Shown one piece after another: positions 2,643 to 19,862 of a stretch of DNA of 20,939 bases. Positions within the stretch are counted from its first letter, which is position 1; each line of letters opens with the position of its first letter. The position numbers and the translations under genes are program-made. The stretch is from Candidatus Hydrothermales bacterium (GTDB lineage Bacteria > Hydrothermota > Hydrothermia > Hydrothermales > JAJRUZ01), in assembly GCA_039630575.1 (NCBI GenBank), contig JBCNUW010000027.1:275-21213 (forward strand), in the 5' to 3' direction. The notes beneath the pieces are model-generated. The model ran no database searches and was not told the DNA's origin. It saw nothing but the letters and a program-made list of their open reading frames with translations.

Positions 2643-3134
2643 TCAGATTCTTATCACTTCAATTTCAAAATTGTTTCCGTTTATTTTAATTAAACCGAAG
2701 GTATTTATAATCGAGAAGATTTTATCAGTAGCTGATCCAGGATTAAAAAGGTGTGTATTTCCAATTTTTTTATTAAAAACCCTATGAGAATGTCCAAAAA
2801 TAATTAGGTCTAAATTTTCGTTTTGAAACTTTTTTAATACCCTATTTTCAATTCCAAATGGTGCTCCAGTTCCGTGAAAGAGTCCTATTTTTAAATTTTC
2901 AATTTCAAAAATTTTTATTTCAGGTAAAAGGTTAAAAAGTGAGGGTTCATCCATATTTCCGTGAACAGCATGAATAAAAAAATTTTTTTCTAAAAAAAGG
3001 TAAAAGTCCTGACAGACGAAATCTCCGGCATGAATTAAACCATCTGACTTTTCTATTTCTTTTAATACTTTAGAGGGGAGTTCCTTTGCTCTCTTAGGTA
3101 TGTGGGTATCAGAGAGAATAACAAATTTTTTCAC
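2643..3134 (-). CDS. YfcE/MJ0936/Vps29-family metallophosphoesterase
   Basis: Motifs SDTH, HAGD, GNMD, HG, GHSH, NPGS; GTG start overlaps the upstream stop (GTGA). Confidence 0.9.
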   Translation of the reverse strand: MKKFVILSDTHIPKRAKELPSKVLKEIEKSDGLIHAGDFVCQDFYLFLEKNFFIHAVHGNMDEPSLFNLLPEIKIFEIENLKIGLFHGTGAPFGIENRVLKKFQNENLDLIIFGHSHRVFNKKIGNTHLFNPGSATDKIFSIINTFGLIKINGNNFEIEVIRI

Positions 3135-3223
3135 TTTTTCTTTTTATGTCTCATCTTTTTTCTTCTTTTTTTTAATTTGTGTCTTTTAATTTTTTTTAAT
3201 TTTCTTTTTCTTCCGCAGGGCAT
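3131..3223 (-). CDS. Small basic 30S ribosomal protein, bS22/mS38 (AURKAIP1/COX24-domain) family, 30 aa
   Basis: Translated by hand: MPCGRKRKLKKIKRHKLKKRRKKMRHKKKK*. Fits the MPxGxKRKxxKxxxHKxKKRxxxxRHKKK pattern of Bacteroidota-type bS22. Its TGA overlaps the GTG of the next gene. Below the ORF-track size cutoff. Confidence 0.85.
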   Translation of the reverse strand: MPCGRKRKLKKIKRHKLKKRRKKMRHKKKK

Positions 3224-3241
3224 AACTTATTTTTTATTTTT

Positions 3242-3260
3242 AAAAGGATTTGAACCTTTT
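3242..3260 (-). repeat. T-arm-like hairpin copy 1: AAAAGG-TTCAAAT-CCTTTT
   Basis: 6-bp inverted repeat with a 7-nt TTCAAAT loop starting at the HU stop codon; core GGTTCAAATCC at 3256-3246. Confidence 0.7.
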
Positions 3261-3529
3261 TAATCCTTTATTTTCATTTTTGGTGATGGTTCAAAAATTA
3301 CTTTCCACTGGGCAGGTATAGAAATTTTTTCTCTTGTTGTAAAATTTCTTCCTGTTCTATTTTTTCTCCATTTAACTTTAAATATTCCAAATCCCTTCAG
3401 GGATACCTTCTCTTTTGATTCAATAGAATTTTTTAATATTTCAATAAATTTTTCAACAATTATTTTTACATCCTTTCTCGGAATACCTGTTTCTTTGTGT
3501 ATTCTTTGTATTAATATATGTTTTGTCAT
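3260..3529 (-). CDS. HU/IHF-family DNA-binding protein
   Basis: MTK start, KVSLKGFGIF, RTGRNFTTREKISIPA, FEPS; 89 aa. Confidence 0.92.
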   Translation of the reverse strand: MTKHILIQRIHKETGIPRKDVKIIVEKFIEILKNSIESKEKVSLKGFGIFKVKWRKNRTGRNFTTREKISIPAQWKVIFEPSPKMKIKD

Positions 3530-3551
3530 CAGCTCTAAATCCTTTTATTTA

Positions 3552-3562
3552 GGGTTTGAACC
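3552..3562 (-). repeat. T-arm-like motif copy 2: GGTTCAAACCC
   Basis: Same 11-mer core in the GGDEF-HU intergenic gap, with only a 2-bp stem. Followed by a separate small inverted repeat CTAAAT-AAAAGG-ATTTAG covering the likely HU SD. Confidence 0.6.
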
Positions 3563-3597
3563 ATTATAATATAATTCTTAAAATTATGTTTTTTCAA
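3563..3597 (-). promoter_or_regulatory. Possible internal promoter for HU-bS22-yfcE-priA
   Basis: TTGAAA (3597-3592)-N18-TATATT (3573-3568), plus an overlapping TATAAT (3568-3563). The AT-rich background makes chance matches plausible. Confidence 0.4.
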
Positions 3598-4525
3598 CTG
3601 ACGGTATAGAATAAACATAATTTTTGCCCTTCTTTTTTGCTTCAAAAAGAGCCTTATCTGCAATAACAAGTAATTTTTCAGGTTTATCAGTTGATTTTGG
3701 AAAACTTGATACACCAAAACTTGCTTTTATATTAAAATTAAGATTTTCTTTTATTTTTATACTATGTTCTTCTAATTCTTTTCTTATAGTGTTTGCTATT
3801 ATTACTCCTTCTTCCAATGTGGTTTTAGGGAATAAAAAGGCAAATTCGTCACCACCGTATCTTGAAATTACCGCATAGGAGTAATCAGTTAAAAGAAAAA
3901 AATTCTTTAGAAATTCACCTACCTTTTGTAAAACTTTACCTCCAACAAAGTGACCATGAATGTCGTTTATCTCTTTAAAATTGTCAAGATCCATAATAAT
4001 TACCGTTACTGGATAGTTGTTTTTATCACTCAAGAATTTTCTAAGTGAAACAAGAAAGTATTTTGAATTAGAAAGTTCAGTTAAATCATCTTTTGTAACA
4101 AGCTCTTCTACTTTTTCTTGGAATTCTATTAACTCAATTAAAAGAGAGATTACATAAAAATATAAAATTTCATCTTCACATAGAGATTTACTTAATGTTC
4201 CAATAAAACCAATTGCTTTGTCGTAGCTGAAAAAGGGGAAAATAATCGCGTTCTCCAATTCATCTATAATCAAAGAAGAATGATAATAAGATTCTTTAAA
4301 AGGAATATCTCTGTAGTTTATTTCCTCAGGTAAAAAATTTTTTTCAACATTAGATGATTCAATCAACACATATTTATTTTTGATTTTTTTGTAAAGAAAG
4401 AAGGATGTTTTATTTGAAGATATTAATTCTTTAAGTACCATTTTGGTTTTATTTCTGTCCCATAAGTAATTAAGCACATAAGGAAGGTTAGAAATTAAAA
4501 TTTTAATTCTATCGTTTTCCACCAT
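3584..4525 (-). CDS. GGDEF-domain dinucleotide cyclase with a degenerate GAF-like N-terminus; atypical (Hypr-like) nucleobase pocket
   Basis: DDLT..N, MDLDNFKEIND.HGHFVGG (Gly where Asp is canonical), RYGGDEF, ASFGV, ADKALFEAKKKGKN; no RxxD I-site. N-terminal AIIFPF..DKAIGFI is GAF-like. Confidence 0.9.
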   Translation of the reverse strand: MVENDRIKILISNLPYVLNYLWDRNKTKMVLKELISSNKTSFFLYKKIKNKYVLIESSNVEKNFLPEEINYRDIPFKESYYHSSLIIDELENAIIFPFFSYDKAIGFIGTLSKSLCEDEILYFYVISLLIELIEFQEKVEELVTKDDLTELSNSKYFLVSLRKFLSDKNNYPVTVIIMDLDNFKEINDIHGHFVGGKVLQKVGEFLKNFFLLTDYSYAVISRYGGDEFAFLFPKTTLEEGVIIANTIRKELEEHSIKIKENLNFNIKASFGVSSFPKSTDKPEKLLVIADKALFEAKKKGKNYVYSIPSVEKT

Positions 4526-6593
4526 AGATTGGTATCACCTTTTTATTGTTCACAACAAAAAAATCATCAATTAATTCTATATTTTCAAGTTTTTCAAATT
4601 TTAACATTTTATCTTTATTAAGCTCTTCAAGTTCTAAATATCCGATGTATGAAATTGTAAAATTCTTATTTTTTATTTTAAAGGTTTTACAGTTTAAAAG
4701 TAAATCTTTTAGATTTTTTTCTTTTACTTCTTCCTCTATTTCAATAATATTTGAATTTATAATAAGATTAGTTAGACTACCTATATCAAGTAGAATAGTA
4801 GAAGAGTCGGGAAGTTTAACTTCAGAGAGTATATACGCTAAATTAGGTATAGGACCTTGAATGTCGAAGTCTCCAAAGGAGTTGAAAGAAAGGTATATAT
4901 CCTTTTCTAATTTACCAGAGAATATTCCAATACCAAGTCTAAAGAGACTTTTTAAAGGGATATCTTTTCCTAAAACATCCGGAAAGAATCCCCTATATTC
5001 AGGATAATGTTTTCTTATGAATTCCTCAGACTTTTCCAGTAATTCAATTGCACATAGTATTGCTCTTTCAGTAGCTTTTTCCTCTGGTTTAATTAGTAGT
5101 TGATCTGAAATTGCTTTTTGAAATCTCATCTTATGACCACTTAAAATAGTTTCCTCAAAAATTTCCTTATATAGTTTGTTTGAATTTTCTGCAAAAAAGG
5201 AAATTCCACCGTCACCTGTTTCTTTTACAGGAAAACCTCCATAGGAGGAAATGGAATTCTTTATTACTTCTTGAAATTTTTTCTTTATAGATAGTTCCTT
5301 TTGCGCATTAAAAAGAGCAATTGACATAAAGGTTGATCCTCTTATATCGTAAACAAGAACAGAAATGACTTGTTTGTTTTTATTTATGAAGTCCTTTAAT
5401 TTTTGTGGCTCGTCAATTTTTACTTTTATTCTTTTTAAATTATTTAATTTTATATATCCCCCCTTTGGAACTAAGGAGAAATAGATGAATTGGCTATTTC
5501 TTTTTTCATCTTCATAGAGATCTTCGTAGGGTTTTACAAAAATTTTTCTTTCTAAAAGTTTTAGTTCAAAAAGCTTACTTAAAGTCTCTTTTATAAACTG
5601 AACATTTTTTAAATAAAAATCTAAAATTTTGATGTCTACTCCCAAAATTTTTCTCTCAAGAAAATTCTCAAAATAAGGTGAACTTTCACCCTTAAAAATT
5701 TTATAACCCTCAGCAAAGATAAATTTTAAGTCTTTTTCAATATCGTTAAAATTAAGATTTAATTTTTCATAAGTTTTGTATAATTTTAAAACATAAAATA
5801 TGTGATTTTCAGGTAAAATATTAACAACAATTTTTCTTTTTTCACTTTGAATAGTTTTTTCTTTTAAAGTTACACCTACAAATCTTAATATTTTTGTAAA
5901 TTCTCTGCTTAATTTATCAGCAATTTCTGTATTTTTTTCCTTCAAAATTTCTTCCCTTACTTCCTTTATTTTTTCATCAAAGAATTTAAGTATTTCTTTT
6001 TTTATTTCCTCTGAGTTTTCTAATTTTTGTATTTTATTCTTACTTTCTTCTAATAATTTGTAAATTCTTGGATTCCATTTTGTCATTTTTTTATAAATTT
6101 CCTTTTCAGTTTCGTTAAATTTTTCCATAAGTTTAAATCTATGAAGTTCAAAAATTAAAAAAGTAATAAAAATAGTAAAAAGGTTTATAGAAAGATCCTC
6201 TTTGTTGAGTATTTCACCTACTGAGGTAATGTCCAGGAACTCAAAATTAGGATTAACCTCTAAAAAATTATCCCATTTAGTTTCGAATTTTTTTTTATTG
6301 CTATAGACTTTTCTTGATATTTTGAAAAAAAGCAAATCAATTATTTCTCTGTATAATCCCTTTAAATCTTTTTTGTATTCTTGATATATTTTCTTTAAGT
6401 TTTCAAAATCTTTTAAGTTTTCAAGGTCAAAAATTATTGCTGGTGTTCTGAATTCCTTTTGAAATTCAGTAATTAAATTTTTACATTCTTCAGATAAAAC
6501 CTCAGAAACATAATTTTCAAGGTCTTCAATAAATTTTAGTGGTTTTAAAAGAGAATAGGAGTAAATTATGGATTCAATTAATCCCTGTTCCAA
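4509..6593 (-). CDS. Large protein with a C-terminal class III adenylate/guanylate cyclase-like domain and a ~400-aa helical N-terminal region
   Basis: VLVYDIRGST (D416), GGFPVKETGDG (K457, D461), A..AILCA, RLGIGIFSG, FDIQGPIPNLAYIL (D577, N584, Ile at the usual Arg). TTG start 7 nt after pilT. Confidence 0.75.
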   Translation of the reverse strand: MEQGLIESIIYSYSLLKPLKFIEDLENYVSEVLSEECKNLITEFQKEFRTPAIIFDLENLKDFENLKKIYQEYKKDLKGLYREIIDLLFFKISRKVYSNKKKFETKWDNFLEVNPNFEFLDITSVGEILNKEDLSINLFTIFITFLIFELHRFKLMEKFNETEKEIYKKMTKWNPRIYKLLEESKNKIQKLENSEEIKKEILKFFDEKIKEVREEILKEKNTEIADKLSREFTKILRFVGVTLKEKTIQSEKRKIVVNILPENHIFYVLKLYKTYEKLNLNFNDIEKDLKFIFAEGYKIFKGESSPYFENFLERKILGVDIKILDFYLKNVQFIKETLSKLFELKLLERKIFVKPYEDLYEDEKRNSQFIYFSLVPKGGYIKLNNLKRIKVKIDEPQKLKDFINKNKQVISVLVYDIRGSTFMSIALFNAQKELSIKKKFQEVIKNSISSYGGFPVKETGDGGISFFAENSNKLYKEIFEETILSGHKMRFQKAISDQLLIKPEEKATERAILCAIELLEKSEEFIRKHYPEYRGFFPDVLGKDIPLKSLFRLGIGIFSGKLEKDIYLSFNSFGDFDIQGPIPNLAYILSEVKLPDSSTILLDIGSLTNLIINSNIIEIEEEVKEKNLKDLLLNCKTFKIKNKNFTISYIGYLELEELNKDKMLKFEKLENIELIDDFFVVNNKKVIPIYGGKR

Positions 6594-6600
6594 AAATTTT

Positions 6601-7749
6601 CTATCTTGCTGAAGGTAATTTTTCTTTTATCATCTGTTCAAGTTCTTCAGGGTTATGTGAGAAGGATACAGCAGTTTCAAGGGTAATTTTTCTTTCCATG
6701 TAAAGTTTAAAGATTGATTGGTTCATAGTTTGCATTCCATATTTTTGCGATGCTTGGATCACTCCGTAGACCTGATGTAATTTGTTATCCCTTATAAGGG
6801 CTCTTACAGCTGGAGTTGCTATTAGAACCTCACAGGCTAGTACTCTTCCTCCTCCAACTTTTGGTAAAAGAGCCTGGGTTATAACTCCAAGTAGAACAAA
6901 TGCAAGTTGAGCTCTTACTTGTTGCTGTTGATGCGGAGGAAAGACATCAATTATTCTATTTATTGACTCTACAGCTGAGTTTGTATGGAGTGTTGCAAGT
7001 GTAAGGTGTCCTGTTTCGGCTATAGTTAAAGCTGCTGCTATTGTCTCATAATCTCTCATCTCACCAATCATTACAACATCAGGATCCTGCCTTAGTGCAT
7101 ATTTAAGTGCATTCTTAAAACTTTTAGTATCACTTTCTACCTGTCGTTGTGAAATAAGTGCTTTTTTGTTCGCAAAGAGGTATTCTATAGGGTCTTCTAT
7201 TGTTATTATATGGCACCTTCTCTCTGAGTTTATTTTATCTATTATTGCTGCTAAAGTTGTTGATTTTCCGCTACCTGTTGGACCTGTCACAAGTACAAGT
7301 CCCTTGGGTCTTGATGCAAGATCTGCAATTACCGTTGGTATACCAAGTTCTTCAAAACTTCTTATCCTAAAAGGTATTGTTCTTATGGCTATTGATACAG
7401 TTCCTCTCTGCTTATACACATTAGCTCTAAATCTTGAAAGTCCAGAAATTCCAAAAGAAAAATCACATTCCCATTCTTCCTCAAACTTTTTCTTGTGCTC
7501 ATCTCTCATAACTGAATAAGCTAGTGCCTGAGCCTGCTCAGGAGTTACAGGAGGGTAAGAAGAAGGAACAAGAACCCCATCAATCCTGAACATAGGAGGA
7601 GAACCAGCAGAAATATGAAGATCAGTTGAACCTCTCTGAACCATTTCCTGCAAAAGTGAAATCATCTGAACTTTTGTTTTTTTATCCTCTACTTCAGTCT
7701 TTACCTCTGTTTTTTTAAATTCAACCTTTTTTGGATTAGTTTCATCCAT
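6601..7749 (-). CDS. pilT: Type IV pilus retraction ATPase
   Basis: STDLHISAGSPP, GPTGSGKSTT, TIEDPIE, LRQDPD..GEMRD, AETGHL...TLHT, AVRALIRD (AIRNLIRE motif), GMQTM. Confidence 0.96.
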   Translation of the reverse strand: MDETNPKKVEFKKTEVKTEVEDKKTKVQMISLLQEMVQRGSTDLHISAGSPPMFRIDGVLVPSSYPPVTPEQAQALAYSVMRDEHKKKFEEEWECDFSFGISGLSRFRANVYKQRGTVSIAIRTIPFRIRSFEELGIPTVIADLASRPKGLVLVTGPTGSGKSTTLAAIIDKINSERRCHIITIEDPIEYLFANKKALISQRQVESDTKSFKNALKYALRQDPDVVMIGEMRDYETIAAALTIAETGHLTLATLHTNSAVESINRIIDVFPPHQQQQVRAQLAFVLLGVITQALLPKVGGGRVLACEVLIATPAVRALIRDNKLHQVYGVIQASQKYGMQTMNQSIFKLYMERKITLETAVSFSHNPEELEQMIKEKLPSAR

Positions 7750-7764
7750 TTTTAAAAATCTCCC

Positions 7765-7791
7765 TAAAAAGAGGGTTTGAACCTCTCCTTA
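7765..7791 (-). repeat. T-arm-like hairpin copy 3 (terminator/attenuator-like): TAAGGAGAGG-TTCAAAC-CCTCTTTTTA
   Basis: Up to 10-bp stem (2 G-U) with a TTCAAAC loop, starting at the pilB-2 stop. The 3' arm contains a U5 run, and the pilT SD GGGAG (7764-7760) follows directly. Confidence 0.7.
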
Positions 7792-9537
7792 TTCTTCTCC
7801 TGCAGCTGTTACCCTTAAAACTTCTTCAAGGGTTGTAATTCCCTTTTTAATTTTTATTATCCCGTCCTCTCTTAGAGTATGCATTCCCTCTTCTCTTGCT
7901 ACCTCTCTTATTTTATCCGATGTTGCGTTGTTTAAAATCATTTCTCTTATCCGAGGAGAAATTGGCATAACTTCATATATACCTATTCTTCCTTTATATC
8001 CTGTATTATTACAGACCTCGCAACCTTCACCTCTATAAAATTTTATACTTGAAATTTCATCTTTTGGAATACCCAACTCAATTATAAGTTCAGGATCATA
8101 ATTGACTTCCCGTTTACATTTCTGACAGATCCTTCTTACAAGTCTCTGTGCCTGAATTAATATAACCGAGGAAGAAATTAAATAGGGTTGTATGCCAAGA
8201 TCAACTAATCTATCTATTGTTGTTGGAGCATCGTTTGTATGGATTGTAGAGAAAACAAGATGACCGGTTAAAGCAGCTCTTATTGCTATTTCTGCTGTTT
8301 CTGAGTCTCTTATTTCTCCTACAAGTATCACATCTGGAGATTGTCTTAGAAAGGCTCTTAAAGCTGAAGCAAAGTCAAGGTTGACTTCCCTGTTTACCTG
8401 CACTTGATTTATGCCCTCTATGTTATATTCTACTGGATCTTCTATCGTTATAATTTGTCTGTCAGGTGTATTAATGGAAGAAAGTGCTGAATATAGGGTT
8501 GTAGTTTTTCCACTACCTGTAGGACCTGTTACAAGTATTATACCAAATGGGGAATTTATAGCTCTTAAAAATCTCTGTAAGTCATTCTCTTCAAATCCTA
8601 AAACTCTAAGATCTAGTGAAAGTCCGGATTTATCAAGAATTCTCATTACTACCTTTTCTCCGAATATAGTTGGAACTACTGAAACGCGAAAGTCTATAAT
8701 CTTTTCATTACTATTTTCATCTTTCAGTTTTAGCTGTATTCTACCATCTTGTGGTTTCCTTCTTTCGGAAATATCTAAGTTAGGACTACACATGAGTTTT
8801 ATCTTTGAAACTATTCCTGTAGAAAGCCTATTAGGTAAATCAGCATAAACTTGTAAAACACCGTCTATTCTAAACCTTATTCTTAAAACTCTCTCAAAGG
8901 GTTCAATATGAATATCTGAAGCCCTTTTAAACACAGCATCTTTTATTATTTTGTTAACTAATTTTGTTATATGAGTATCCTTACTTAATTTTAAAATTTC
9001 TTTTTCATCAAGAGCTTCCTCATATTCTTCTAATGCTATTTCCTCTATATCAAAAGGTGTAGCTTCTTCCTCTTTTTCTTTTATCTCCTCTATTTTTGCT
9101 ATTTCTTTTTTATAACCTGGATAAAATCTTTCTAAAGCTCTTCTTAGAGAGGATTCGGCAGCTATAACAGGTTCTACATCAAGTCCAGTAATAAATCTTA
9201 CATTTTCTAAAGCTTGAATATTTGAAGGGTCTATCATCGCTAAAAATAAAATATTTGCTTTTCTTGCCAAAGGTAATACTTCATAATGATAGCAAATATC
9301 AGCTGGAAGAAGTTTCAAAACTTCTTCAGGTATCTTTATATCTGTAAGATCCATAGCAGGAACACCAAGCTGTTTAGCCAAAACCTCAACAAGTTGTTTC
9401 TCTGTTATATATCCAAGCTCAACAAGGGTTGAGCCTAATCTTTTTCCAAATTCTTTTTGTTTTTTTAAAGCTTCTTCAAGTTGTTCCTTGGTTATTAAAC
9501 CATACTTTATAAGAAGTTCACCAATTTTAAGCGGCAT
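7789..9537 (-). CDS. pilB: Type IV pilus extension ATPase PilB/GspE (copy 2) with MshEN N-terminus
   Basis: KIG..L...G.I...QL..AL..Q / RLG..L..LG tandem motif, ASDIHIEP, PQDGR, GPTGSGKTTTLY, RQSPD..GEIRD, TGHLV.ST.HTN, CQKC/CEVC zinc site. Confidence 0.93.
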   Translation of the reverse strand: MPLKIGELLIKYGLITKEQLEEALKKQKEFGKRLGSTLVELGYITEKQLVEVLAKQLGVPAMDLTDIKIPEEVLKLLPADICYHYEVLPLARKANILFLAMIDPSNIQALENVRFITGLDVEPVIAAESSLRRALERFYPGYKKEIAKIEEIKEKEEEATPFDIEEIALEEYEEALDEKEILKLSKDTHITKLVNKIIKDAVFKRASDIHIEPFERVLRIRFRIDGVLQVYADLPNRLSTGIVSKIKLMCSPNLDISERRKPQDGRIQLKLKDENSNEKIIDFRVSVVPTIFGEKVVMRILDKSGLSLDLRVLGFEENDLQRFLRAINSPFGIILVTGPTGSGKTTTLYSALSSINTPDRQIITIEDPVEYNIEGINQVQVNREVNLDFASALRAFLRQSPDVILVGEIRDSETAEIAIRAALTGHLVFSTIHTNDAPTTIDRLVDLGIQPYLISSSVILIQAQRLVRRICQKCKREVNYDPELIIELGIPKDEISSIKFYRGEGCEVCNNTGYKGRIGIYEVMPISPRIREMILNNATSDKIREVAREEGMHTLREDGIIKIKKGITTLEEVLRVTAAGEE

Positions 9538-9539
9538 AG

Positions 9540-11390
9540 TTATTCAATTTTTGTTTCTTTTAACACCTCTTCAGGTGTAGTTATTCCTTTTAAAATTTTT
9601 CTTATGCCTGTTTCTCTCAAACTTATCATTCCTTCCTCTAAAGCAGCTTTTTCAATCTCAAAAGTGGGGGCCTTTTTTAATATGAGTTCTCTAATCTTTT
9701 TCGTAATAGGCATTACCTCAAATAAGCCTGTTCTTCCTTTATAACCTATTCTAAAGCATTTTTCGCAGCCTTTTCCTCTATAAAATTTAATACCTTTAAA
9801 TCTATCAGGGTTATCAGGTGAAAGATCAAATAAAACAGACTCATCTGGGGTGTATTCTTCCTTACAGTTTTCACAAATTTTTCTAACAAGTCTCTGGGAA
9901 ACTACCACAAGAAGGGTGGAGGCAATCAAAAAGGGCTCAATTTCCATATTTATTAAACGTGTTATAGTAGCCGCTGCAGTATTGGTATGAACTGTAGATA
10001 AAACAAGGTGTCCTGTAAGTGAAGCTCTTATTGCTATCTCTGCTGTTTCAAGATCACGGATTTCCCCAACCATTATGATATCAGGGTCTTGTCTTAAAAA
10101 AGCCTTTAGTCCTGCTGCAAAAGTCATTCCTACACTTTCCTTCACTTGAACCTGATTTATACCATGGAGAGTAAATTCTACCGGATCTTCAACAGTTGAA
10201 ATATTAACATCTATTGAATTAAGCTCCTGAAGGGCAGAGTATAAAGTTGTAGTTTTCCCACTACCTGTAGGTCCTGTAACAAGAATTATTCCGTTTGGAT
10301 TTTTTAAAATTTTTCTAAATATCTTCAGAGATTCCTCTTCAAAACCTAAAACGTCTAAACTAAGCTCAATTGCGGACCTATCAAGTATTCTCATTGCAAC
10401 CTTTTCTCCATATACAGTTGGAATAACGGCAACACGCACATCTATTCTCTTATCACCCATTTTTAGTCTAATTCTCCCATCCTGGGGTTTTCTTTTTTCC
10501 TCTATTTTCATTTTTGATACACCCTTTATTCTGGCAACAATTGGTCTTATTAATTTTACATCTCTTTTTAGAACTTCTTGAAGAACTCCATCGATTCTAT
10601 ATCTTACTCTGAGCTCTTTCTCATAAGGTTCGATATGAATATCTGAAGCTCTTCTTCTTATTGCTTCATAAAGAATTGCATTTACAATTTTTACAATGGG
10701 AGATTTTTCATCCTTTATGGAGGTAATATCTTCTGCTTCGTCCTCTACTTTTTCAGGTGCAAGTTCTATATCATCTCCGTACACAAGAATTTCTTCGATA
10801 CTTTGCTCTGATTCAGAACTCTTTATTTCTGCTTTATTTTTTGATCCCTCAATCAGTTCTTTTGTTTCTTTTCTTTCAATTTGAGAACTACCAGTTAACA
10901 CTTCAATACCCATATCTTCACTTTCAATTTTTGCAATTTGATCCATCATGTCTTCAATCTTGTAGTATTTTTTTATTGCTTCCTTAATAAAGTCTTCAAG
11001 AGCAATAAGTGGTATAACTTCAAATTTTGTTAAAAATCTTACATCTTCAATTGCAAAGTGATCTTCTGGATTAGCCATTGCCAAGAACAACTTGTTCCCC
11101 CTTACTGCCAATGGAACAACATCATATCTTGCAGCAACATGGGCTGGAATAAGTTTTATAACCTCATCTTGAATGCTTTCAAAATGTCTCTTTTTTGCTA
11201 CTGGCACGTTTCCAAATTGTTCAGATAGAACCTTTAAAATATCATCCTCTGTTGCATAACCTAATTCAAGCAATATTGACCCGAGTCTTTTTCCGTTTCT
11301 TTTCTGCAATTCAAGTGCTTCCTTTAGTTGTTCTTCTGTTATAACTCCTGCATCAATAAGCATTTCACCGATTCTTTTTATCCTTTTCAT
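9540..11390 (-). CDS. pilB: Type IV pilus extension ATPase PilB/GspE (copy 1) with MshEN N-terminus and a long acidic linker
   Basis: RIG..L...G.I...QL..AL..Q / RLG..L..LG tandem motif, ASDIHIEP, PQDGR, GPTGSGKTTTLY, RQDPD..GEIRD, CENC/CEKC zinc site. Confidence 0.93.
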   Translation of the reverse strand: MKRIKRIGEMLIDAGVITEEQLKEALELQKRNGKRLGSILLELGYATEDDILKVLSEQFGNVPVAKKRHFESIQDEVIKLIPAHVAARYDVVPLAVRGNKLFLAMANPEDHFAIEDVRFLTKFEVIPLIALEDFIKEAIKKYYKIEDMMDQIAKIESEDMGIEVLTGSSQIERKETKELIEGSKNKAEIKSSESEQSIEEILVYGDDIELAPEKVEDEAEDITSIKDEKSPIVKIVNAILYEAIRRRASDIHIEPYEKELRVRYRIDGVLQEVLKRDVKLIRPIVARIKGVSKMKIEEKRKPQDGRIRLKMGDKRIDVRVAVIPTVYGEKVAMRILDRSAIELSLDVLGFEEESLKIFRKILKNPNGIILVTGPTGSGKTTTLYSALQELNSIDVNISTVEDPVEFTLHGINQVQVKESVGMTFAAGLKAFLRQDPDIIMVGEIRDLETAEIAIRASLTGHLVLSTVHTNTAAATITRLINMEIEPFLIASTLLVVVSQRLVRKICENCKEEYTPDESVLFDLSPDNPDRFKGIKFYRGKGCEKCFRIGYKGRTGLFEVMPITKKIRELILKKAPTFEIEKAALEEGMISLRETGIRKILKGITTPEEVLKETKIE

Positions 11391-11407
11391 TCCTTATCTA
11401 TTTTATA

Positions 11408-12601
11408 TTAAACTTTATAGATCAGTTTTCGCAACTCATTCAATATAAAATGGGAACTTTTAAATTTTATCTCTTCTCTTTTACCTCTGAAAAGCTTTTT
11501 AAATACTAAAGTTTCTTTCTCATAAGAAATAGCAAGGTAAACTGTACCAACCGGTTTTTCTTTTGAACCACCTGTGGGTCCTGCTATACCAGAAATGGAA
11601 AGACCAAAATCAGTGTCAAACAGTTTTCTAACACTTTCAGCCATTTTCTTTACAACAGGTTCTGATACCGCTCCATAATTTTTGAGATCTTCCTCTTTTA
11701 CACCAAGAATCTTTTTTTTAATCTCATTTGAGTAGGCAATTACTCCGCCTATGAAATACTCTGAACTACCTGGAATATCTGTAATTCTTGAAGATAAAAG
11801 TCCTCCTGTACAACTTTCTGCTGTGCTTATTTTTTTCCCTTTTTCTTTAAGTAACCTTCCGACAACTTCCTCAAGTAATATAGGTCCTTCTGAAGAAATA
11901 TCATCCATAAATGTTTTATATAAAAAATCTTTTGTTTCATTAACTTCTTCTCTTTTCCCCTTTACACCCAAAATTACTCCACCTGTGTAAGGTAGAAAAA
12001 AGAGAAGATTTAAGTTTACCTTTTCTTTTAAAACATCTTGAATTTCAATTTCCTTTTTGAAAGGTAAATCAAAATATATAACTTTATGATCTTTTTTAGG
12101 TTCAAAATCCTTTAATATTTTCTCAAGGGAGTGTTCAAATTCATTTTTTGGACCTGGTAGTGAAAAAATTTTTTTCCCCTTTTTTTCAACTAAAAATGAA
12201 TGGGCTAATCCGATCTCATTTATATAAATTTTTGCACCCTTTGGAAAAAGTCCATATTTTTTATGCTCTTTTTCAGAAAGTAATGGTTCTCTTTTTTTTA
12301 AATCATTAAAAATGTCCTCTCTGAATACAAGCTCTATGTTAAAAAATTCTGAAATAGATTCTCTTGTAATATCGTCTATAGTAGGACCTAATCCTCCTAT
12401 GGTAAATAAAGTATCAGTTTTTTCTAAGCAAAAGGAAAGAGCCTCTTTAATAGATTCTTTTGAGTCTTTAGCTGTTACGTGAATTTCAACTTCTTCTCCT
12501 AATTCTCCTAACTTTTTAGCAAGATAATAAAAATTTGAATCGACTCTGTATCCGCTTAAAATTTCATTGCCTATGGTGATGCAAGATATTTTTTTATTCA
12601 T
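11408..12601 (-). CDS. cinA: CinA-family bifunctional protein (COG1058/MocF-like domain plus PncC NMN deamidase)
   Basis: GNEILSG...DSN, GGLGPT.DD.T, LPGP; C-terminal [40 protein letters not shown]. Confidence 0.93.
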
Positions 12602-13191
12602 GTAGGAGCCTTGCTTGAAAGATGTCTTATAACCATCTTTGCTATTTCTTTTAATGTTTCGAAAACTCCTTTTCCAATGGTGGCAACTGCTTCATAATAA
12701 GGTACACCATCTTTGTTTAAGTTTCTTTGTAGGTCTTCAATTGGAGCTGCATTTGGTAGGTCTCTCTTGTTATACTGTATTACATAGGGTATATCTTCAA
12801 TTTTTAATCCGTATGTTTCAAGATTTTCAAGCATGTTCTCAAAACTTTCAATATTTTCGTCCATTCTCTCGATCTGAGAATCAGCGACAAAGACTATTCC
12901 ATCAACGCCTTTTAAAATCAATTTTCTTGAGGCATTATAAAAGACTTGACCAGGAACTGTATAAAGATGAAATCTTGTTTTAAAACCTCTCACGTTGCCA
13001 AGATCTATTGGTAAAAAATCAAAGAACAAGGTTCTTTCCTGCTCTGTAGCAACAGAGACAAGTTGTCCTTTAAGATCTGGTGAAAGTTTTTCATATATGT
13101 ATTTTATGTTTGTAGTTTTTCCAGAAAGACCCGGACCATAATAAACTATTTTAACATTAATTTCTCTTGATGCGTAATTTATTAGAGCCAT
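12598..13191 (-). CDS. mglA: MglA small Ras-like GTPase (cell polarity/motility)
   Basis: [60 protein letters not shown]; very close to the Myxococcus/Thermus MglA pattern. Confidence 0.97.
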
Positions 13192-13197
13192 AATTTT

Positions 13198-13682
13198 TTA
13201 AGGTCCAAAAAGTTTATCAAGTTCTTCTTCAGCTTCTTTTAAAAAACTTTTATCAAAAACCTCTTTAGGTGGGGTAACTTTTAATTTTTCAAAAAGTTCG
13301 TCAAGTACATGTTCTAATTCCTGTGAAGCATGTTTTGTTCTAACTTTCACCAGTCCCAGAGTTGTTTTTGAATCAAACAGAACTGCAAGAATAACCCTAT
13401 TTGCTACAAGTGAAATAAATAAAGAATTTTTTTCTCCTTGATGGTAAAGAGAAGAAAAGTTTTTTTCTCCAATCAGTTCAGCAAGCTGACTTGTTGCACC
13501 GAAATCTGCTGCAGATAGTGTAGCAAAAGAAACAATATCAAGACCACTAATATCTCCAATTGAAGTTATAAGTTGTCCAGCTTTATCAATAAGCAAAACT
13601 GCATTTGAATTTGAAGTTTCCTTTAGCTTTTTCAGTATTGTCTCAACTTTTTTAAAACTTTCCTCAATATATTTATATTCAC

Positions 13683-13686
<4 letters not shown>
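13198..13686 (-). CDS. mglB: MglB roadblock/LC7-domain GAP for MglA
   Basis: LLIDKAGQLI, FATLSAADFGATSQLA.LIGE..F..LYHQGEK, FD..TTLGLV, acidic C-terminal helix ending LDKLFG; directly upstream of mglA. Confidence 0.94.
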
Positions 13687-17229: not shown

Positions 17230-17835
17230 TTAAAGTTTAAATAGATAAAAAATTGTCCCGAAAATGTTTATTTTCTCTTTAATTTTATAATTTCTTGAAA
17301 ATTCCCTTATTTTTAAACCTAGTATACTCGACCTTAAAAAGTTATATTCTGGAAAAAAAATTGATAGTATATAAGTGAAAAAATAAATGTAAGGAATTAA
17401 AACAAAAGAAAAGGGAGTAGAAGGTCTAACCATTTCAAGAATGTATATTTCACCGCTATTTTTTAGAATTCTTCGTGTTTCTCTTAAAAATAATTCTTTC
17501 TGTTCTATGTTCCTCCAGAGAAAACTGCTCACAACATAATCAAAACTTTTGTTCTTAAAAGGTAAAAAGTTTGCATCAGCTCTAACATAAAAGATTTTTT
17601 TATTTAAAAGTCTTTTTTCAAGCATTTTTTTAGAAATTTCAATTGCAAAAATTTTTTTTACTTTTTTTCTTTTACTTAAATACATCGAAAGCTCACCTTT
17701 CCCTGCTCCTACATCGCAGATTGTACCTGATACCCTTTTTGACAAAAACCACCTTGAATAATGGTCTACTCCTAAAGAAAAAATAAGGTTAATTATGTCA
17801 TAAATTTTTGCTATTTTGTCGAATCTACTATTCAT
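17230..17835 (-). CDS. UbiE/MenG-like class I SAM-dependent methyltransferase (201 aa; start revised from 17964)
   Basis: MNSRFDKIAKIYDIINLIFSLG matches the UbiE/MenG N-terminus; also DVGAGKG, ADANFLPF...SFD, RN...L.E..RILK..G...ILE. ATG at 17835 makes an 8-nt ATGAATAG overlap with the pilD stop. Confidence 0.85.
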   Translation of the reverse strand: MNSRFDKIAKIYDIINLIFSLGVDHYSRWFLSKRVSGTICDVGAGKGELSMYLSKRKKVKKIFAIEISKKMLEKRLLNKKIFYVRADANFLPFKNKSFDYVVSSFLWRNIEQKELFLRETRRILKNSGEIYILEMVRPSTPFSFVLIPYIYFFTYILSIFFPEYNFLRSSILGLKIREFSRNYKIKEKINIFGTIFYLFKL

Positions 17836-18580
17836 TAACAAATATTTTATAAAATAAGTAATGATGGTTGGGGTATATAAGGTAGTATAAAAGGATTCCA
17901 AGAAAAAGAAAAGGTAAAAGTGGTAAATATCTATTTCCCCTTTTAAAAAGTAGAAATAAACCAACTAAGGAGCCTAAAAGAAAGGATAGAAAGAAAGTTA
18001 AAATTAAGTCAAACCCCCTTATATAGGCTGCTATTAGGGCAAAAACATAAGGATCTCCCTCACCTAAGGCTTCCTTTTTAAAAAAAACTGAACCAAGCCA
18101 TCTTAAAAGAATACCAAATAAAAAAGCTAAAAAGGAGTAAATTATTGACTCTATTAAATGATTGTTAACAGAGGAAATTATAAAAGCGACGTAAAGGGAT
18201 GGAAAAAGAATAACATCGTAGATGTATCCTGTCTCGTAGTCAATAAATGCCATTAACATTAAAGAATAGGTTAATAAAACTGTTTCAATCATTTTAACGG
18301 AAATACCAAACTTTTTATATGCTAAAAGGAATAAAAGTGCTGTTAAAAGTTCTACTAAGGGATATCTAAAACTTATTTTTGATTTGCAGAATCTACATCT
18401 ACCCTTTAGTAATATGAAACTTATTATGGGAATGTTATCATAGAATTTTATTTTATTTTTACAAACAGGACAGAAGGAAAATGGTTTTATTATTGATAGA
18501 CCCTTTGGTATTCTATAAATAACTACGTTTGCAAAACTACCGAAACAAAGACCTAAAATAAAGAAAAAAAAGTTATCCAG
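17828..18580 (-). CDS. pilD: Prepilin peptidase/N-methyltransferase (A24A); start extended from 18292, probable CTG start
   Basis: The frame stays open from 18292 up to a TAG at 18586-18584 and encodes GLCFGSFANVVIYRIP, SFCPVC, YDNIPIISF..LKGRCRFC...IS.RYPLVELLTA (PilD N-domain). The C-terminal part has FIDYE and LGEGD (catalytic Asp pair) and YLPLLPFL. Confidence 0.9.
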   Translation of the reverse strand: MDNFFFFILGLCFGSFANVVIYRIPKGLSIIKPFSFCPVCKNKIKFYDNIPIISFILLKGRCRFCKSKISFRYPLVELLTALLFLLAYKKFGISVKMIETVLLTYSLMLMAFIDYETGYIYDVILFPSLYVAFIISSVNNHLIESIIYSFLAFLFGILLRWLGSVFFKKEALGEGDPYVFALIAAYIRGFDLILTFFLSFLLGSLVGLFLLFKRGNRYLPLLPFLFLGILLYYLIYPNHHYLFYKIFVNE

Positions 18581-19862
18581 CAGCTAATACCCTGTTTTTA
18601 CCGCTTTCTTTTGCCTTATAAAGGGCTTTATCTGCTTTTTCAATTAGAGTCTTTCCATCTTCAGCATCATCAGGAAAAACTGCTACTCCTCCAGAAATTG
18701 TTAATTTTCCGCCTGGTTGTTTCTCTTCCTTAGGGAATTTTGTTTTTTCTATAATTTTTCTTATCTGGTCTCCATAAGTTAATGATTCAAACTTGTCTCT
18801 TCCAGGTAAAAGAACAACAAATTCCTCACCACCGTATCTTGCAGGAATGCCATAAACTGCTTCTGCTGTTTTCTTTAAAATTTTTGCAATCCCTCTTAAA
18901 AGCTTATCTCCCATTGGATGTCCATTTGTATCGTTGTATTTTTTGAAAAAGTCGATATCGAGCATGAAAATTCCAACTTTATAACCATCCTTTTTTGCTT
19001 TTATTAATTCTTTTTCTAATCTCTCCATAAAGTATCTTTTATTATAAATCCCTGTTAAACCATCTGTATCAGCCATTGTTTGTATCTTTTCGAGAAGCAT
19101 TGCTGAGTTAAGTGAAAGGGCTGTAAGTTCAGATATCATCTGTAGAGCCTCCATTGATGTTCTCAAAGCTTCTTCCTTTGTTTCTTTGACAGAGATACCC
19201 TGTATTTTTTCTTCCTTAATCCCTGACACAGCTACTACTCCAAAGGTTGTAGCATGGTAAGTAAGAGGAGAGATGATTTCATAATCTACACCAAAGGGAT
19301 CTGCAAGATAGGTTTCTGCAAGTCCATCTACCAAGGCATCTTGAAACATAGTATCTTTGTCCATGATGTACCTTTTTTTTGCTACATAACCTATGGGTCC
19401 CTCTCCAAGATTATAAACAAGATCACCTTTTTTAAAAGTTTCTTTTCCTGTTAATGTTTTATGTTCATAAAGAACATATTTAAGACCCTCTTCAGTTGGT
19501 GTAAAGTAATATACATTTTCAACATTTAATATATTCTTTGTTTGCTCTAAAACAAGATAAATGATGTCTTTTTCTTCCCTTAGTTCACTTAAGGCTCTTG
19601 CAAGGTTGATTACAGATTGTATCATCCTTTTTCTTTTAGAAAACATTAAATTAAGCTCATCAATTCTGTTTGTTAGTTCCTTTACCATATTTTCATGAGT
19701 ATCCCTTAGACCTTTTAAACGCTTCTCAAGTTCAGTAATTTTTTTATTTTTATCTTTTATTTTTCCTCTTAAATCAGAAATAATAATTAAAAAAATTATT
19801 AAAATCCCTAAAAATATAGTTATAACTAAATAAACATTTTCCCTTAAGAGTTCGTTTATCAT
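18573..19862 (-). CDS. Membrane-anchored diguanylate cyclase (TM helix, coiled coil, GAF-like, GGEEF)
   Basis: Hydrophobic VYLVITIFLGILIIFLIII, heptad-like charged segment, GEGPIGYVA/ISPL...TFGVV (GAF), DGLTG..N, LDIDFFKKYND.NGH..GD, RYGGEEF; no RxxD I-site. Confidence 0.92.
   Translation of the reverse strand: MINELLRENVYLVITIFLGILIIFLIIISDLRGKIKDKNKKITELEKRLKGLRDTHENMVKELTNRIDELNLMFSKRKRMIQSVINLARALSELREEKDIIYLVLEQTKNILNVENVYYFTPTEEGLKYVLYEHKTLTGKETFKKGDLVYNLGEGPIGYVAKKRYIMDKDTMFQDALVDGLAETYLADPFGVDYEIISPLTYHATTFGVVAVSGIKEEKIQGISVKETKEEALRTSMEALQMISELTALSLNSAMLLEKIQTMADTDGLTGIYNKRYFMERLEKELIKAKKDGYKVGIFMLDIDFFKKYNDTNGHPMGDKLLRGIAKILKKTAEAVYGIPARYGGEEFVVLLPGRDKFESLTYGDQIRKIIEKTKFPKEEKQPGGKLTISGGVAVFPDDAEDGKTLIEKADKALYKAKESGKNRVLAAG

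Follow-up and report, generated by a model that had tools for sequence, protein, structure and literature searches.

A divergent class III cyclase-like protein without the usual catalytic arginine and its overlapping diguanylate cyclase gene in a Hydrothermales genome

We analysed a stretch of 20,939 nucleotides (nt) from a Candidatus Hydrothermales bacterium (contig JBCNUW010000027.1; hereafter the window), and focus here on a gene (P0001) at positions 4509..6593 of its minus strand, which encodes a protein of 694 amino acids (aa). This protein is related to adenylate cyclases but has diverged very far from them, and the usual catalytic arginine is missing from it. The constant partner of its family is an overlapping downstream gene for a GGDEF-type diguanylate cyclase, not the pilus ATPase gene pilT beside which it stands in the window. 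The coupling to the GGDEF gene is the strongest signal that we found. We favour, at a level of confidence that falls slightly short of an even call, the view that the protein is a working non-canonical cyclase and serves as the input component of a module of two genes, in which a cyclic nucleotide would switch on the overlapping diguanylate cyclase. The limits of the reading frame (stop codon 4509-4511), the 7 nt that separate it from pilT (stop codon 6601-6603) and its 17-nt overlap with the GGDEF gene (start at 4525) agree with those given in a preliminary description of this DNA.

In the predicted structure, the C-terminal domain unambiguously has the class III cyclase fold. An AlphaFold2 model of residues 395-694, built from an alignment of 30 sequences over the C-terminal 300 residues (A2, with homologs taken from a homolog search and from genomes of the phylum), reached a predicted local distance difference test score (pLDDT) of 84.5 and a predicted template modelling score (pTM) of 0.88. 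When this model was searched against the PDB with Foldseek, all 31 matches listed, out of at least 500, were class III cyclases, headed by CyaC (1wc3; E 1.4e-9, template modelling (TM) score on the target 0.69), and the cyclic UMP (cUMP) and cyclic CMP (cCMP) cyclases ranked lower among the matches listed. A VIA re-alignment to CyaB (3r5g) gave a Z score of 18.3 and a root-mean-square deviation (rmsd) of 2.5 Å for 182 of CyaB's 195 residues, which bears out the class III identity first proposed in the preliminary description. Model residues 14-300 were mapped onto one whole cyclase domain, so that the C-terminal strands complete the cyclase fold itself, and a separate C-terminal β-domain of PilZ-like type was rejected on the same ground. 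The cyclase-homology domain (CHD) is therefore a single domain with insertions, spanning approximately residues 408-694 (4512..5372, minus strand).

Sequence searches reached the same relatives from a greater distance. The A2 profile matched solved class III cyclases in the PDB weakly and over the first half of the domain only (CyaB 3r5g, E 0.0011), and it retrieved 45 clusters at E<1e-10 from a library of 1.84 billion representatives, where canonical Guanylate_cyc proteins made up the faint matches at the end of the list (E about 1e-5 to 1e-3). Scans of the whole protein and of each half against Pfam and NCBIfam at E values up to 10 returned nothing meaningful. As the family escapes every Pfam and NCBIfam model tested, annotation of this kind would likely label its members 'hypothetical protein', the name that two of the homologs bear in their source records.

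To place the active-site residues we used hhalign to pair A2 with an alignment of the five best canonical cyclase domains from the same genome (A3; probability 80%, E 1.4e-5). D416, K457 and D461 paired with the canonical D, K and D, and FGDFDIQGPIPNLAYI paired with EGDYTAIGDTVNIAQR. This last pairing puts D577 at the specificity position, N584 at the position of the asparagine (it faces the Asn of canonical VNIAQR) and Ile588 at the position of the NxxxR arginine that acts in the transition state (codon ATA, 4830..4832, minus strand). All six residues had been named in the preliminary description and were found in the translation, and hhalign likewise set Ile588 where that description had mapped it, on the Arg of NxAxR. 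Lysine and aspartate at the positions of K457 and D577 specify adenine.

Conservation was assessed on 50 sequences that share approximately 30% identity, namely the window protein and 49 domain-covering proteins from the homolog search and the A2 library search, fragments (8 of the 57 profile matches) being left out. R418, N571 and D577 were conserved in 50/50 sequences, D416 and K457 in 49/50, and D461 in 48/50, which is the pattern expected of a site predicted still to bind a metal-nucleotide complex. In column 588 the six commonest residues were I 19, L 19, F 6, T 2, V 2 and Y 1, and column 584 was occupied by N 26, R 16, S 4, D 2, A 1 and H 1. To judge from this alignment, the loss of Arg588 is an old trait of the family and no recent point mutation, because no homolog carries an arginine there. 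The preliminary remark that the ATA codon lies one base from AGA thus has no bearing on the question, and a recent mutation was discarded as an explanation.

A candidate replacement lies in an insertion of approximately 32 aa (residues ~471-502; 5088..5183, minus strand) that follows the GDGG hairpin and had no counterpart in the hhalign pairing, in line with the 30-35 aa described earlier. In the AlphaFold2 model it forms a helix (77-84, in model numbering) and a β-hairpin (strands 85-90 and 93-98), and it includes Arg490 (codon 5124-5126, minus strand), which is conserved in 42 of the 50 sequences. Arg490 was present in every one of the 34 members that lack an arginine at 584, and therefore on helix α4, and the eight members without an aligned Arg490 all have Arg584; in three of these eight an arginine sits one residue away, probably because of an alignment shift. 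Such a distribution would fit a relocated catalytic arginine, as well as the earlier suggestion of an arginine supplied by the insertion. In a quick tree, the 16 Arg584 sequences formed one clade (support 99), the window protein clustered with its own order (support 99), and a very long branch separated the whole family from the canonical cyclases of the genome. We also observed a clade of upstream tandem paralogs with R-E-A-N on helix α4 (e.g. L043:7569-8702 and L049:8061-9197), in which the arginine occupies the canonical Asn position and an asparagine follows three residues on, resembling a swapped NxxxR; some members of this REAN clade lack the Arg490 hairpin.

The partner gene lies at 3584..4525 on the minus strand and encodes a protein of 313 aa whose GGDEF domain (residues 145-302; Pfam GGDEF, 2.2e-35) carries a canonical RYGGDEF motif that is invariant in 7/7 orthologs. 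This GGDEF protein had been called atypical, a term that holds for its N-terminal 140 aa only and not for its motif. We examined the genomic neighbourhood of the family in the 30 best loci, which include that of the window, overlap with the second locus set described below and come from related rather than independent genomes. In 25 of them a (GAF-)GGDEF gene on the same strand directly follows and overlaps the cyclase-like gene by 13-57 nt, and the five loci without an overlapping GGDEF gene all belong to one genus. A second set comprised 20 larger loci, six from the window's order (two families) and 14 from other families. A GGDEF gene lies downstream in 10 of these 14, and the gene directly downstream encodes a GAF(-GAF)-GGDEF protein in seven of the ten loci of other families that were scanned with Pfam. 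The top matches of these GAF domains were PDE5 (1.8e-39), CyaB2 (3.8e-35), PDE2A (5e-33) and PDE10A (3e-30), that is, the type that binds cyclic mononucleotides (cNMPs), with other GAF types at 1e-15 or worse; the 195-aa chain 5w10_A, which we take to be Lcd1, was also among their best PDB matches (E 4.3e-37). These loci support the coupling to the downstream GGDEF gene that had been surmised from the window.

We consider a working cyclase to be the best reading because the metal- and base-binding residues are near-invariant, a candidate substitute arginine is available in every member, and a cNMP-type receptor is encoded in the overlapping downstream gene; the product would probably be cyclic AMP (cAMP), made slowly or with Arg490 as the substitute arginine. 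Several observations weigh against this reading. PF00211 (Guanylate_cyc) gave no match at E<=10 to either the whole protein or its C-terminal half, neither arginine nor lysine occurs at column 588 in any of the 50 sequences, and the canonical asparagine is kept in just 26 of them. The complementary pattern of Arg490 and Arg584, as seen in the alignment and tree, is one that rests on few evolutionary events, and the six canonical PF00211 matches above the cut-off in the same genome could supply the cNMP instead. The 140-aa N-terminus of the window's GGDEF protein, said earlier to be GAF-like, matched nothing in Pfam at E<=10, gave 0 matches in a PDB profile search and aligned to the GAF domains of the relatives with an hhalign probability of 0.5%; ESM features do point to GAF clusters (0.87-0.90), which the tool itself rates as a lead only, and the earlier label is not sustained by the other searches.

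Much of this evidence would also be accommodated by a pseudo-cyclase that binds ATP-Mg through D416, D461, K457 and D577 without turnover, and that steers the translationally coupled diguanylate cyclase by direct contact, as a sensor of energy state or of a ligand. Such a role would be in keeping with the loss of the catalytic arginine in 50/50 sequences and of the asparagine in 24/50, with gene overlaps in 25/30 loci that suggest stoichiometric co-production, with a partner that has no recognisable cNMP-binding domain in the window's order, with the canonical cyclases encoded elsewhere in the genome, and with a TTG start that has no evident Shine-Dalgarno sequence and suggests low abundance. 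We nevertheless regard it as rather unlikely, though a serious contender: metal and base-specifying residues have stayed near-invariant at a family identity of approximately 30%, no member is without a candidate substitute arginine, at 490, at 584 or at both, and in most families the partner has cNMP-binding GAF domains of PDE5/CyaB2 type, implying a diffusible cyclic nucleotide.

An active enzyme with another product, either a pyrimidine cyclase making cUMP or cCMP or a different nucleotidyl transferase on the palm fold, is improbable in our estimation. The structural matches did include a cUMP synthase (7r65; Z 16.2, rmsd 2.5 Å) and a cCMP cyclase (8jsf), and in two other WOR-3 families the gene is embedded in a tight pyrR-pyrB-pyrC-CHD-(GAF-GGDEF)-uridine-kinase-family array (L041, L047, L051 and L054), where a GAF-GAF-GGDEF gene and a uridine-kinase/PRK-family gene of ~520 aa come next in three of the four loci. 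However, K457 and D577 form an adenine-type pair, adenylyl and guanylyl cyclases outscore the pyrimidine cyclases in the VIA comparison, the GAF domains of the partners resemble those that bind cAMP or cyclic GMP (cGMP), and pyr genes are absent from the window.

Within the phylum, 106 of 272 genomes contain the family, and many of these have it as a tandem pair of paralogs. A scan of 185,579 species genomes, seeded by a pattern, recovered 132 relatives. The best 80 of these 132 were all from metagenome-assembled genomes (MAGs) labelled WOR-3, Stahlbacteria, Hydrothermus, TA06, Edwardsbacteria/UBP2, Cloacimonadota or 'uncultured', with no cultured organism among them; uncultured WOR-3-like MAGs thus make up the whole known range of the family. 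Literature searches on class III cyclases, WOR-3 and GAF diguanylate cyclases returned no paper on it. The genome that carries the window has seven PF00211 matches, six of them above the cut-off and one (G000:C5:41246-41518) interrupted by an internal TAA stop codon, possibly a cyclase pseudogene.

The adjacency to pilT is of narrower distribution than the link to the GGDEF gene. The window reads ligA-recR-mglB-mglA-cinA-pilB-pilB-pilT-target-GGDEF-HU, with gaps of at most 54 nt or overlaps. On the minus strand, pilT (6601..7749; a PilT/PilU-family ATPase, TIGR01420, 6.2e-149) lies 7 nt upstream of the cyclase-like gene, and is itself preceded by pilB paralog 2 (7789..9537; TIGR02538, 3.1e-216) and pilB paralog 1 (9540..11390; TIGR02538, 3.2e-201). 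Both PilB proteins bear an N-terminal MshEN motif, which binds cyclic di-GMP (c-di-GMP) (NF053729, 77.4 and 75.3 bits, respectively, for a cut-off of 38). The two are approximately 50% identical to each other, and the duplication is present in 6/6 loci of the order, as is the complete pilB-pilB-pilT-target-GGDEF arrangement. Conversely, neither pilT nor pilB occurs in any of the 14 loci of other families over the 15-19 kb retrieved, from which it follows that the cyclase-like family predates and outlives the pilus context.

These loci also bear on a proposal made in the preliminary description, where the protein was seen as occupying the slot normally held by pilC and as coupled to the pilus motor. 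By analogy with the pilus-cAMP link of Pseudomonas, a cyclase that takes PilC's place by docking on PilT or PilB could report motor activity, and the constant order in 6/6 loci of the order's two families, the 7-nt gap after pilT and the part reportedly played by PilT in cAMP surface sensing by P. aeruginosa (PMC10187167) are in its favour. However, the 0/14 count in other families makes direct coupling to PilT lineage-specific at best, and pilC proved to be intact elsewhere in the genome, on contig C56, as a gene of 408 aa with two T2SSF stretches (7.6e-69) followed by pilS- and pilR-like genes. In the 694-aa protein neither a T2SSF domain nor a membrane domain was detected. The protein does not stand in for pilC, and a motor-docked cyclase seems to us quite unlikely. 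A second pilT paralog lies on contig C78 and a Tad/Flp cluster on contig C5.

The analysis shows the fold and active-site residues, the family-wide absence of Arg588, the conserved gene order, the type of GAF domain in the relatives, an intact GGDEF motif and the MshEN motifs, whereas catalysis, the identity of the product, a role for Arg490 and all binding steps are inferred. In the mechanism that we propose for a working cyclase, the helical N-terminus would read a signal, and the cyclase domain would dimerise and cyclise a nucleoside triphosphate. The product would then bind the N-terminal sensor of the GGDEF enzyme, which would be a cNMP-type GAF domain in the other families of WOR-3 but, in the enzyme encoded in the window, a degenerate domain of 140 aa, and the local concentration of c-di-GMP would rise. 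The two MshEN-PilB ATPases encoded just upstream could bind this c-di-GMP and drive pilus extension against PilT. A broader and distinctly more tentative reading, which we would not put beyond a fair suspicion, is that the family represents a branch of class III cyclases whose catalytic arginine no longer sits at the usual place on the helix but on the inserted Arg490 β-hairpin or, in the REAN clade, at the former Asn position, and which is wired to a diguanylate cyclase by overlapping genes; in Hydrothermales-like WOR-3 it would form a one-operon cascade leading from a cyclic mononucleotide to c-di-GMP and on to MshEN-PilB.

The putative input region, residues 1-394 (5412..6593, minus strand), is predicted to be helical and could be assigned to no fold, as the preliminary description of an unassignable helical N-terminus of ~400 aa had anticipated. 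It had no match in Pfam or NCBIfam, chance-level matches alone in a PDB profile search (E 0.066 or worse), and no usable feature match in the ESM Atlas, where structure rows had TM scores of at most 0.30. The AlphaFold2 model of this region (from a 9-sequence alignment; pLDDT 36, pTM 0.21) was too poor to be used, although helical according to DSSP. Orthologs of the whole protein measure 692-694 aa, are 56-82% identical to it and have their start codon, ATG or TTG, at the equivalent position. In the window the TTG at 6591-6593 is the sole ATG, GTG or TTG within the first 60 codons of the reading frame, and no Shine-Dalgarno sequence is evident upstream of it, a combination that hints at deliberately low translation of the protein. 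A TTG start recurs across the order (window gene, P0007, L011, L012 and L013). The window is of low GC content (25-37%) and nearly every gene is on its minus strand. A promoter scan of positions 3000-12000 gave 36 sites for 33.6 ± 6.4 expected, which is chance level, and 11 terminator-like sites were found in the same interval for 4.1 ± 2.5 expected.

Among characterised class III cyclases, CyaB of P. aeruginosa (3r5g) and CyaC of Spirulina (1wc1) are the closest terms of comparison. They share with the C-terminal domain the fold (Z 18.3 and 18.1, rmsd 2.5 Å), the two metal-binding aspartates, a lysine four residues before the second of these, the DIRG(S/F)T motif and the asparagine on α4. In contrast, sequence identity is only about 20%, the NxxxR arginine is missing from every member of the window family, and the window protein has approximately 100 extra residues in insertions, including the helix and β-hairpin with Arg490. 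It further differs in falling under all Pfam/NCBIfam thresholds and in its unique helical N-terminus of ~400 aa. DUF2652 proteins offer a parallel of another kind, being remote class III cyclase relatives recognised computationally in Actinobacteria, Bacteroidetes and Proteobacteria (PMC4886424). The window family is likewise a set of remote relatives recognised computationally, but it is a different family from other phyla, and the 694-aa protein has no Pfam match to DUF2652 at E<=10.

The two-gene module also has counterparts. In Xanthomonas campestris, the class III cGMP cyclase XC_0250 adjoins XC_0249, a cNMP-binding GGDEF enzyme (PMC3770947). There, as in the window, a cyclase-type gene is linked to a diguanylate cyclase gene, and a relay from cNMP to c-di-GMP is what we predict here. 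However, the sensor of XC_0249 is a CAP-type cNMP domain whereas that of the window's relatives is a GAF domain, and XC_0250 is canonical and demonstrably active whereas the window protein lacks the arginine and its gene overlaps that of its partner. Lcd1 of Leptospira interrogans (PMC8846402) is a GAF-GGDEF protein activated by cAMP, an architecture that recurs in the partners from other WOR-3 families. Lcd1 is not reported beside a dedicated cyclase, and the window's partner, unlike Lcd1, has no detectable GAF domain.

Other features of the window and of the genome touch on the same systems. Within the pilus-ATPase array, genes for an MglA-like small GTPase and an MglB (Roadblock) GTPase-activating protein lie at 12598-13686 (minus strand), with cinA between them and the pilus-ATPase genes; mglA and mglB were present in the three loci of the window's own family and were not found in the three loci of its sister family. 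Further along the minus strand, a prepilin-peptidase (Peptidase_A24) reading frame of 154 aa (17828-18292) overlaps one for a UbiE-type methyltransferase (17230-17964) by 137 nt; PilD may be truncated or fused here, or the start may have been miscalled. A second, unrelated GGDEF protein (429 aa; 18573-19862, minus strand) has an N-terminal membrane or coiled-coil region. On the contig that carries pilC, a Cas6-family gene (L062, G000:C56, 8161-8931) has pilC-pilS-pilR on one side and a cheW-cheY-cheA-cheC cluster on the other.

Should the protein prove active, the NxxxR arginine would be dispensable in class III cyclases as long as another arginine takes over, and the rules by which cyclases found in genomes are called active or dead would widen. 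If it is inactive, it would be a clean case of a pseudo-cyclase retained as a regulator. The conserved overlap with a GAF-GGDEF gene represents a compact case in which signalling by cyclic mononucleotides and by c-di-GMP would meet, and it comes from a candidate phylum without cultured members. In the lineage of the window this module is tied to pilus extension motors gated by c-di-GMP, and the 694-aa protein likely feeds a signal into pilus control.

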